Part shown: positions 17,495 to 19,632 of the stretch, in pieces
Numbering within the stretch: the first letter of the stretch is position 1
Layout: each line of letters starts with the position of its first letter
NCBI GenBank assembly: GCA_049679965.1
Contig: JBAUGX010000118.1
Coordinates: 8,064 to 72,063, forward strand
Direction: 5' to 3'
DNA length: 64,000 bases
Origin: Vicinamibacterales bacterium
Lineage (GTDB): Bacteria; Acidobacteriota; Vicinamibacteria; Vicinamibacterales; CAVVIG01
Made by a program: the position numbers and the translations under genes
Notes under the pieces: model-generated
The model's database searches: none
What the model was told of the DNA's origin: nothing
What the model saw: only the letters and a program-made list of their open reading frames with translations

Positions 17495-19111
17495 TTACCC
17501 CAGTACTTCCCTGACTGTCCGCAGCAAGTCTCCAAGCCTGAATGGCTTGGCGAGCCAGGGGCAACTGCTCTCGGCCAGCAGCGTTTCGGTTTCGGCGCCT
17601 GCGACATCGCCCGTCACGAAAATCACCCGCCGGGCCAGCACCGGCGCGGCCGCGGCGAGCGCCTTGTAGAAGGCCTTCCCGTCGAGCCGCGGCATCTTCA
17701 AATCGCAGATGACTGCGTCAAAGGTCGCCAGCTTCACTTTGGCCAGCGCCTCTTCGCCATCCGACGCGTGCTCGACGCCGTAGCCCGCGTCACGAAGCGC
17801 GTCGGTGACTGCCAGTGCCAGCGCGGTTTCGTCCTCGACGATGAGGATGGAAGCGCCGGTCCCGGTCGGGGGCCGTACCCGGCGATCCGACAGGCGTGTC
17901 CGGGCAGCCGAGGGCGAGGCCAGCTTGCCGCCGCTGATTGGCACCTCCACGTAGAACGAGGCACCCGCGTGAGGCTGGGATTCCAGCCTGATGCGCCCGC
18001 CGTGCTCCTGGATGATGGCATAGGCGACAGTCAGGCCGAGACCGGTGCCGGTGCCGACCTCCTTGGTCGTGAAGAAGGGGTCGAAAATCTTGGGCTGCAG
18101 TTCGTCGGGAATGCCAGGGCCGTCGTCGTTGATCTCCAGGATGACGCATTCGCGATCCGCGTCGTGCCACGTGCGCAGCACGAGCACGCCGCGGCCGTGC
18201 GCCCCGATCATGGCCTGCTCGGCGTTGATGATCAGATTGAGCAGGACCTGTTGCATCTGGTGGCCATCGGCGAACACCTGCGGCAGGCCGGCGGCGAGCG
18301 CGTCGATGACGGTGATGTTCGAGAGGCGTTGATCGTAGGCGCGAAGCGCCAGGGTTTCCCGAATGACCTGATTGATGTCTATCATCGCGCGCGTCGTCTG
18401 CCGCTTGCGCGCGAAGGTGAGCAGGTTGCGGACGATGCGGGCGGCGCGCTCCGATTCGCCGAGGATGGTTTCGAGCCCCTGGCGGATCGGTTCCTCGAGC
18501 GTGGCCCGCGACGAAAGGCGTTCGGCCCAGCTCAGAATCGTCGCCAGCGGATTATTGAGCTCGTGAGCGACGCCGGAAATGGTCTGGCCGAGTGCGGCCA
18601 TCTTCTCTGCCTGAAGGAGCTGATGGTAGATGTCGCGGGTTTCATCGTCGAGCTTCTTGCGCTCGCTGACATCCCGGACGAGCGCCTCGACCCGGACGCT
18701 GCCGTCTTCGAGCGGCGGCTCGGCCGCGGCCGTGACCTCGACCCAAACGGCGCTCTTGTCGGCTCGGCGCAGGCGCAGCAGGTAGTCCCCCACGGCGCCG
18801 TCAGCAGAGAGACGGGCAACGAGCGCGGCGCGCGCCTGCGGGTCGACAAAGCAGTTGTGATCGAAGGGTCGCACCTCGGCGTCCGGTGCTTCGCTCGCGT
18901 AGCCGAAGATGAGCTTCAGATGCGGATTCGCAGCGATCGTGGACGTTCCATCCGGCCCGATGGTGCCGATATAGACGCCCTCATGGACCGCTTCGAACAG
19001 CCGCGCGAACGCCGCCGCACGGGGTTCCACGGAGAGGATTATAGGGCCGGGGCTCGGGATTTGGGATTCGGGACTTGGGGGACGGCTGTCTGTCATTCGC
19101 AAGAACTGCAA
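17495..19111 (-). CDS. hybrid sensor histidine kinase (PAS + HisKA + HATPase_c + C-terminal receiver)
   Basis: H-box VAHELNNPLATI, G-boxes DDGPGIP and GTGLGL, and receiver ILIVEDE ... VICDLKMPRLDG. The first about 27 codons translate the heptamer array, so the true start may be GTG at 19030. Confidence 0.9.
   Translation of the reverse strand: MQFLRMTDSRPPSPESQIPSPGPIILSVEPRAAAFARLFEAVHEGVYIGTIGPDGTSTIAANPHLKLIFGYASEAPDAEVRPFDHNCFVDPQARAALVARLSADGAVGDYLLRLRRADKSAVWVEVTAAAEPPLEDGSVRVEALVRDVSERKKLDDETRDIYHQLLQAEKMAALGQTISGVAHELNNPLATILSWAERLSSRATLEEPIRQGLETILGESERAARIVRNLLTFARKRQTTRAMIDINQVIRETLALRAYDQRLSNITVIDALAAGLPQVFADGHQMQQVLLNLIINAEQAMIGAHGRGVLVLRTWHDADRECVILEINDDGPGIPDELQPKIFDPFFTTKEVGTGTGLGLTVAYAIIQEHGGRIRLESQPHAGASFYVEVPISGGKLASPSAARTRLSDRRVRPPTGTGASILIVEDETALALAVTDALRDAGYGVEHASDGEEALAKVKLATFDAVICDLKMPRLDGKAFYKALAAAAPVLARRVIFVTGDVAGAETETLLAESSCPWLAKPFRLGDLLRTVREVLG
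19049..19081. repeat. GGGATTY-type heptamer array (G-rich on the + strand)
   Basis: GGGGCTC GGGATTT GGGATTC GGGACTT GGGGG. It forms the left inverted arm flanking the four-helix-bundle gene. Confidence 0.9.
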
Positions 19112-19189
19112 TCAGAACCCTAGCAGAGGTGGCAGATACCGCTTAGCTCAGCACCCAATAATCAGAAACCCTGAAACACTTCGCGCGGC

Positions 19190-19582
19190 ATGCCTGATGC
19201 AATCCAAAACCGCATGCCGGAAACCATTACGAGCTACCGTGACCTAGTCGTGTGGCAGAAAGGGATGGACCTCGCTGAGTGTGTGTTTCACGTGACGGCG
19301 AGGTTCCCGGACTCTGAACGATTCGGTCTCTCGACTCAGATGCGAAAGGCCGCTGTCTCGATACCATCAAACGTGGCAGAGGGACATCGGCATCGTCGAG
19401 CCAGCTACGTTCATCACGTCGTAATCGCGCTTGGGTCGCACGCAGAACTCGAAACGCAGGGGTTGCTCGCGCATCGGCTTGGATTCGTGAATGCGGCGAA
19501 TCTGGAGAAGTTCATCAGGCTCTCGACGCAGGTTGGCGAGCTTGCGCACGGTCTTCTGCGGTCGCTTGAAGCCCGCCCGTGA
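19190..19582 (+). CDS. four-helix-bundle protein (23S rRNA intervening-sequence protein / Avd-like family)
   Basis: SYRDLVVWQKGMDLAECVFHVTARFPDSERFGLSTQMRKAAVSIPSNVAEGH is the family signature. GC is lower than in the flanking DNA. Confidence 0.85.
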   Translation: MPDAIQNRMPETITSYRDLVVWQKGMDLAECVFHVTARFPDSERFGLSTQMRKAAVSIPSNVAEGHRHRRASYVHHVVIALGSHAELETQGLLAHRLGFVNAANLEKFIRLSTQVGELAHGLLRSLEARP

Positions 19583-19595
19583 GCCTGCACAGCTA

Positions 19596-19632
19596 GAATC
19601 CCCAAATCCCGAATCCCAAACCCCGAATCCCA
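19596..19632. repeat. GGGATTY-type heptamer array in inverted orientation (C-rich on the + strand)
   Basis: GAATC CCCAAAT CCCGAAT CCCAAAC CCCGAAT CCCA. It forms the right inverted arm and abuts the stop codon of the PCYCGC gene. Confidence 0.9.

Follow-up and report, generated by a model that had tools for sequence, protein, structure and literature searches.

The junction described here lies in a 64,000-nucleotide stretch of DNA from a Vicinamibacterales bacterium (GenBank assembly GCA_049679965.1, contig JBAUGX010000118.1, positions 8,064 to 72,063 of the forward strand), referred to below as the window. Between a gene for a PCYCGC-motif protein and a gene for a hybrid histidine kinase, the window contains a small gene of the four-helix-bundle family PF05635. 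This gene and its leader are enclosed by two inverted arrays of tandem heptamers of the type GGGATTY; arrays, leader and gene are termed the cassette, and the arrays its arms. The original prediction, made from the letters of the window, had described a possibly mobile cassette resembling the intervening sequences (IVSs) of 23S rRNA and had classed the arrays as G-quadruplex (G4) motifs. The features at the junction, in window coordinates, are as follows.

17495..19030, minus strand: hybrid histidine kinase/receiver, host gene; probable start GTG 19030-19028
19049..19081, plus strand: left arm, about five tandem heptamers, G-rich on the plus strand
19082..19213, plus strand: cassette leader, 52% G+C, conserved together with the gene in orthologues
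19214..19582, plus strand: four-helix-bundle gene (PF05635/TIGR02436), 122 aa from ATG 19214
19596..19632, plus strand: right arm, C-rich inverted copy of the heptamer array, ending 1 nt before the PCYCGC stop codon
19634..20230, minus strand: PCYCGC-motif protein (PF13798), host gene; stop codon TAG 19636-19634

Anatomy of the cassette

Read directly, the left arm is GGGGCTC GGGATTT GGGATTC GGGACTT GGGGG and the right arm is GAATCCCCAAATCCCGAATCCCAAACCCCGAATCCCA. An inverted-repeat search paired positions 19049-19080 with 19600-19631 (32 nt, 88% complementary, 519 nt between), in agreement with the inverted G-rich and C-rich arrays that had been proposed. The lower G+C content claimed for the intervening segment was likewise confirmed: the enclosed 514 bp have 57.0% G+C, compared with 64.5% for the 64-kb window, and G+C at third codon positions (GC3) is 0.65 in the four-helix-bundle gene, 0.82 in the kinase gene and 0.74 in the PCYCGC gene. 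The heptamer pattern GGGNNTYGGGRNTYGGG has 13 matches in the window, where 0.34 would be expected and none of 100 shuffled sequences reached 13, and these matches are confined to three places (12129, 15736-15804 and the two cassette arms). Tandem Repeats Finder assigned the arms a period of 7 with 3.4 and 5.0 copies, which places them among the short tandemly repeated repetitive (STRR) sequences as defined by at least three head-to-tail 7-nt units in an intergenic position. Each arm also contains five runs of three or more G separated by loops of 3-4 nt, so the predicted G4 sequence motif (at least four runs, loops of 1-7 nt) is present in both. In the minimum free energy and centroid folds predicted for both strands, the arms close a stem of approximately 30 bp around the gene.

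The encoded protein matches PF05635 (E=4.7e-28; 98 bits against a cut-off of 33.8) and TIGR02436, "four helix bundle protein" (90.9 bits against a cut-off of 24). The nearest solved structure is 2GSC, which is XCC0516 of Xanthomonas campestris (E=6e-20), and homology to it suggests a pentamer of four-helix bundles. The longest open reading frame (ORF), 19190-19582, would encode the 130 aa of the original prediction; orthologues begin at the position of ATG 19214 (MPETITSYRDL), which is likely the true start and gives 122 aa. The gene is, as had been stated, the only one between the arrays, and it is the only PF05635 gene in the window.

At 19102-19113 the leader contains the motif AGAACTGCAATC; further on, a stem is predicted in which approximately 19186-19193 pairs with 19212-19219, enclosing the start codon. 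Among leaders from different loci (loci and contigs are given L numbers), a small hairpin that precedes the start codon by about 20 nt, at 19186-19219 of the window, is kept by compensatory changes, the pairing being GCATG..CATGC in the window, L001 and L011 and GCACA..TGTGC in L169 and L171. A further stem in decayed copies, CCTCGCGGCAC..GTGCTCGGCGAGG, sequesters a Shine-Dalgarno-like GAGG motif. These leader hairpins may exert translational control over the four-helix-bundle gene. Searches against Rfam gave no match for the cassette at E values up to 1 and none for the whole 64-kb window, rRNA included, at gathering thresholds. A promoter and terminator scan of 18950-19750 found none, and no PADLOC defence model matched.

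Gain, descent, inversion and decay at one junction

Orthologous loci were collected by scanning metagenomes with the PCYCGC protein, which yielded 75 loci whose junctions were read by tblastn and inspection. In distant relatives free of an insert, only 4-11 nt separate the PCYCGC stop codon from the start of the kinase alignment (L036, L047, L053, L054, L056, L062 and L067), and in L039, L043, L048 and others the two genes overlap. Full GGGATTY-bracketed cassettes are restricted to one clade (99% support in the Shimodaira-Hasegawa-like approximate likelihood ratio test, SH-aLRT). The presence/absence comparison suggested with the original prediction therefore found both states, and the cassette was added at a junction where the PCYCGC and kinase genes abut or overlap in distant relatives. 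Arrays, leader and gene come and go together at this site, and every intact copy of the gene at the locus retains its GGGATTY arms (relatives L001, L169-171, L175, L177 and L178).

Several loci carry what remains of a cassette. ORF-less remnants with a G-array and a recognizable leader were found in L018, L019, L026, L066 and L082; L024 has an internal deletion of the ORF, and L016 has lost the leader and start codon. The flanks of the gene-bearing L016 are almost identical to those of the gene-less L025 and L027, marking a recent loss. Other repeats also occupy the junction. Octamer hairpins (GGTCATCT / TCTGGTCA) follow the PCYCGC stop codon in L017, L020, L022, L023, L028 and L029, other repeat units are present in L034 and L063, and a GTGGCTG array is found in L013, the nearest relative that lacks the gene. 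The junction is thus a hot spot, at which repeat hairpins of several unrelated kinds are found.

The closest homologues of the protein (P0002, P0003, P0006, P0014, P0023, P0038 and P0066; 58-76% identity) are encoded, wherever the contig could be read, at the same locus and adjoining the same kinase gene. The orthologous four-helix-bundle genes form a clade with 100/100 support, apart from the PF05635 copies that Vicinamibacterales carry at other loci. Because all nine of the closest homologues examined are at this locus, the cassette here is an old vertical resident rather than a recently mobile one, and it has been inherited vertically in a Vicinamibacterales clade; the suggestion of mobility is not borne out for this copy. 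Outside the arms, no direct repeat of the kind left by MITEs (miniature inverted-repeat transposable elements) or transposons was seen. In L175 and L177, where the PCYCGC gene has been lost, the cassette and both arrays lie directly between a GGDEF gene and the kinase gene. The arrays themselves turn over by slippage, one arm having 11 units in L169 and 5 in the near-identical strain L170.

Orientation differs among these copies, a feature the original prediction had missed. The four-helix-bundle gene is on the strand opposite to the PCYCGC and kinase genes in the window, L169, L170, L171 and L178, and is co-directional with them in L001-L012, L011, L016, L175 and L177. When the window was aligned with L001, the outer flanks matched in the minus orientation, the inner 515 bp in the plus orientation and the arms both ways. 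Between L178 and L011, flank identity is 93.6% and 89.6% in the minus orientation, and the cassette (L178 1227-1881) is 83% identical in the plus orientation. The kinase tree places the window with L001 and L011 with L178 as sister pairs, each with 100% SH-aLRT support. Two fully supported sister pairs with opposite orientations imply at least two independent inversions; the array-bounded segment has been inverted in place at least twice. Two independent assemblies show the window strain in its inverted state, and in the L001 lineage 11 contigs drawn from several samples show the forward state, contigs giving the majority orientation only (11 of 11 forward in the L001 lineage, 2 of 2 inverted in the window strain). 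Misassembly was considered as the source of the inversions and rejected: the arms are either imperfect or below the length of the final assembly k-mers, both states were recovered by more than one independent assembly, and L178 lies on a 3-Mb contig.

Heptamer arrays beside PF05635 genes and elsewhere in the window

The wider family was surveyed with a PF05635-alignment scan of one genome per species, which returned 80 loci from many phyla. Brackets were scored by Smith-Waterman alignment, in which the upstream region was set against the reverse-complemented downstream region and a score of at least 35 was required. Bracketing inverted repeats were found at 35 of 75 genome loci and at none of 74 displaced controls, and among the bracketed loci the arm period was 7 in 28 and 8 in 6. 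At least one array of period 7 or 8 was present beside the gene at 58 of the 80 loci, with an array density 14.7 times that in the rest of the loci. Inverted flanks are common across the family. Neither this survey nor the relatives with an intact gene at the junction refute the original prediction. None of eight pairs of related loci among the 80 showed a flip, all being collinear, and flipping is documented at the Vicinamibacterales locus only.

The repeat unit varies by lineage and includes GTGGACG, GGGATCA, GGCAGTC, CAGTGGT, CAGTAGT, GGGGAGTA, GGTTTCT and others; many units are devoid of G-runs (CAGTAGT, GGTTTCT, ACGTTCA, AGTACCT and GTTTTTA). In a flagellar operon of a member of the Phycisphaerae (L101), two cassettes are interspersed in the order flgB / four-helix-bundle gene / flgC-fliE / four-helix-bundle gene / fliF. 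The first, at 150-620, has the units GGGGATC/GGGGGTC and the second, at 1400-1890, the units GGGGCTA/GAGGCTA, and this difference within one operon indicates that the unit belongs to the cassette and not to the genome. Viral and proviral contigs from IMG/VR (L179-L209) gave a similar picture, with 18 of 31 loci bracketed by inverted period-7/8 arrays; such contigs are a possible route of horizontal spread. Collectively, these results show a design that recurs in many phyla and in viral contigs: a PF05635 gene flanked by inverted tandem arrays of 7- or 8-mers, with a cassette-specific unit. In a tree of 88 proteins, poorly resolved overall, only close relatives share units. Among arm mismatches in 37 cassettes, G-U-compatible changes numbered 44 in the sense and 51 in the antisense direction (p=0.54), alongside 68 transversions.

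Two further loci in the window carry the cassette heptamer, 3.3 and 6.9 kb away, and both had been overlooked.

15734..15806, unstranded: empty hairpin of GGGATTY heptamers, 73 nt with a 12-nt loop, cargo-free
12129..12159, plus strand: solo GGGATTY array of about 4 units at convergent fabD/HAD gene ends

The empty hairpin (dG -51.5 kcal/mol, z -5.9) is flanked by a sigma-54 activator gene and an HTH_17 gene. The closest relative (L172/L173) carries both repeats at the orthologous sites in other copy numbers, the solo array having 7 units in L172. At least five further heptamer families occur at gene ends in the window. Heptamer families of this genome include CGACTGC, AGAACTA, GCAATCT and AACGACC. 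Following an OmpA-like gene, an (AGAACTA)x4.7 array and TTAGTTCTT, some 100 nt further downstream, pair around a terminator-like stem (30751-30870), and the next gene, a 127-aa ACT-domain-like ORF, is followed by a (GCAATCT)x3.6 array (31278-31302); neither of these two families has a four-helix-bundle gene of its own in the window. In related Vicinamibacterales, a separate intergenic family of palindromes resembling repetitive extragenic palindromic (REP) sequences, GTAGTGTCCGCCTGAAGGCGGAC..., is recurrent (L173 4152-4206, 5181-5241 and 5511-5563; tails of L073 and L074).

On the kinase side of the junction, a TATAAT box (19043-19038, minus strand) lies 7 nt upstream of GTG 19030, and orthologues retain it whether or not they have the cassette (e.g. 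L068, L025, L022 and L030). The kinase most likely starts at this GTG, outside the left arm and not inside the array, and the apparent start of its ORF within the array is therefore an artefact of ORF extension. The conserved box suggests that the kinase mRNA is leaderless, with a -35 position that would fall within whichever repeat fills the junction. A practical consequence is that such arrays mislead gene callers, host ORFs being stretched into them as in this case.

Interpretation and relation to known systems

We consider it reasonably probable that the PF05635 gene, its leader of about 130 nt and the inverted GGGATTY arrays form a hairpin cassette of the rRNA-IVS type that resides outside rRNA. 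The IVS-like character in a non-rRNA context put forward in the original prediction stands: the cassette is discrete, it is present or absent at orthologous junctions, and the window has no Rfam rRNA match. The package was inserted at the PCYCGC/kinase junction and then passed on by vertical descent, and its two arms would give rise to the flips, by recombination or template switching between them. In RNA, the arms would enclose the cassette in a paired stem of about 30 bp, and RNase III may cut this stem, by analogy with ORF-bearing 23S rRNA IVSs. Such a cut would free the insert from read-through host transcripts, so that it could be tolerated between or within genes, and this uncoupling would account for the same design in rRNA helices, at operon junctions and even inside genes. 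Arrays gain and lose whole units, and in several lineages truncation or deletion of the gene has left arrays, leader remnants or other repeat hairpins behind. Avd, a member of a homologous four-helix-bundle fold family, is the pentameric nucleic-acid-binding partner of the reverse transcriptase in diversity-generating retroelements (DGRs); the cassette protein would be an Avd-like pentameric nucleic-acid binder and would act on its own element.

Leptospira reportedly carries an ORF-bearing IVS in its 23S rRNA, described in 1993. The IVS of Coxiella burnetii is 428 nt long; a terminal stem of 28 bp encloses its S23p ORF and is cut by RNase III in vitro (PMC4990558). Like 23S rRNA IVSs, the cassette contains a PF05635 protein gene, falls in a size range of approximately 430-580 nt, has a terminal stem of about 28-32 bp around the ORF and a G+C content below that of its host, and shows a decay-prone ORF and sporadic presence among relatives. 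It differs in lying between two protein-coding genes, not in helix 25 or 45 of 23S rRNA, in having tandem heptamer arrays as arms that expand and contract, and in a segment that inverts in place; excision by RNase III has been demonstrated for IVSs (PMC4990558) and would apply to the cassette by extension. PF05635 genes have also been reported scattered within cas loci and in rRNA inserts of bacteria of the candidate phyla radiation.

Several points weigh against this interpretation. Processing at the stem in this organism is drawn from analogy, and a strong bracket is absent from about half of the sampled family loci. The lack of a G-U bias among arm mismatches leaves no signature favouring selection on an RNA stem over homogenization of the arms at the DNA level. 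The kinase has its own conserved TATAAT box beside the arm, so the junction need not be operon-internal. Even after its long residence, the four-helix-bundle gene has a GC3 far lower than its neighbours, which simple vertical descent does not explain. The flips, finally, may have arisen by excision and re-insertion in the other orientation.

Among the alternatives, the one that fares best, while still unlikely, is that PF05635 proteins are trans-acting partners of tandem-heptamer (STRR-type) repeats. The pentamer would recognize its own unit in DNA or RNA; the gene cassette would be the autonomous form, and the many empty hairpins and solo arrays with its unit (15734-15806, 12129-12159) would be non-autonomous derivatives. 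A comparison with REP sequences, REPINs and MITEs points to a possible autonomous/non-autonomous relationship, these being likewise short extragenic hairpins at gene ends with empty copies such as that at 15734-15806. The cassette differs from them in that its arms are tandem arrays and not a unique palindrome, in the absence of a REP-associated tyrosine transposase (RAYT) or other transposase, in that no target-site duplication was seen and in the vertical inheritance of this copy. If true, the idea of a trans-acting partner would explain both the 30-year-old puzzle of the IVS protein and the origin of bacterial heptamer repeats.

A programmed invertible switch (phase variation), with arms that serve as recombination sites and flips that turn the four-helix-bundle gene or the kinase on and off within a population, is rather improbable. 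The cassette shares with Hin/Gin and fimS-type switches a segment bounded by inverted repeats and found in both orientations among close relatives; the two or more independent inversions, and the overlap of the kinase-side arm with the position of the kinase -35 region, could be read in the same way. Unlike those switches, it has no invertase gene and its arms are degenerate microsatellites; no recombinase was found among the neighbours, within approximately 7 kb either side in a syntenic relative. Its orientation looks fixed in each lineage, with 11 forward contigs in one and both window-strain assemblies inverted, which argues against fast phase variation, and the collinear pairs elsewhere in the family speak against a switch as well.

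It is less probable again that the juxtaposition is due to chance, with GGGATTY a generic STRR-like intergenic repeat serving as terminator or spacer and an unrelated small gene caught between two copies. Gene-free GGGATTY repeats at 15734-15806 and 12129-12159, the other heptamer families at gene ends and the unrelated repeat hairpins at the same junction in relatives all fit such an explanation. It is difficult to reconcile with the excess of bracketed PF05635 loci over displaced controls and the enrichment of arrays beside the gene, with the gain and loss of arrays, leader and gene as one, with arrays that accompany the gene even after PCYCGC loss (L175 and L177) and with the different units in two cassettes of one operon (L101).

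STRR repeats are reportedly known from cyanobacteria, in a description dating from 1990. Related G-rich heptamers, GGGAATC in Xanthomonas and GGGGA(C/T)T in Nostoc, with approximately 70 convergent pairs, fold into G4 structures in vitro (Rehm et al. 2015, PMC4692102). The cassette arrays resemble these repeats in having near-identical tandem 7-nt units, an intergenic position at gene ends, a preference for about 4 units, frequent convergent pairs, and a copy number that varies among relatives while the locus is conserved. The published repeats were described as free-standing and were not tied to any gene; at this locus and across the family, inverted pairs flank a PF05635 gene. That report does not mention the PF05635 protein family (Rehm et al. 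2015, PMC4692102). According to its supplementary file 2, repeat #15 (GGGAATCGGGAGTGGAGAATCGGGAATC) lies between bccP (XCC0517) and XCC0516 (PMC4692102). This GGGAATC repeat overlaps the start of XCC0516, the crystallized PF05635 member (2GSC), a link on which its authors did not remark. A literature search, with subscription titles outside its reach, returned no paper connecting the PF05635 family with heptamer repeats.

The near-identity of the GGGATTY arms to these repeats, together with five G-runs per arm and loops of 3-4 nt, raises the idea that the arrays are G4 regulatory elements that fold in DNA or RNA and control the flanking genes. We regard this as marginally less probable than chance juxtaposition. 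Equivalent arms elsewhere, with the units devoid of G-runs listed above, do not conserve G4 potential, and every G-rich arm faces competition from its complementary partner, with which it can pair as a stem of about 30 bp. The label "G-quadruplex-type" accordingly does not hold as a defining property; it is the inverted tandem array that is conserved among homologous arms.

That the gene is an orphan Avd left by a DGR after loss of the reverse transcriptase and template repeat is very improbable: the Avd models NF033474 (23.6 bits) and bAvd PF22296 (27.2 bits) give weak matches far under their curated cut-offs of 80 and 40 bits, genes for PCYCGC, kinase, sigma factor, EamA and GGDEF proteins surround the cassette, no reverse transcriptase, template repeat or variable repeat accompanies it (reverse transcriptase families were looked for, protein by protein, over the span of the 14.7-kb syntenic contig L172), and a bracket of heptamer arrays is foreign to DGRs.

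The new element at this locus is the pair of in-place inversions, together with a full life-cycle series at one site: insertion, vertical inheritance, array slippage, at least two inversions in place, ORF decay and deletion. Cultivable carriers, among them Xanthomonas campestris (XCC0516, beside accB), Mesorhizobium, Luteimonas soli and Adhaeretor mobilis, make the biology of the cassette testable. The IVS-encoded protein and the tandem heptamer repeats, both STRR sequences and the G4 repeats of Xanthomonas and Nostoc, are oddities of long standing that had been neither explained nor connected; this locus and the survey of the family show them to be two parts of one package, and the rRNA IVS may be the rRNA-resident case of a general hairpin-bounded cassette that is sited between genes in many phyla.

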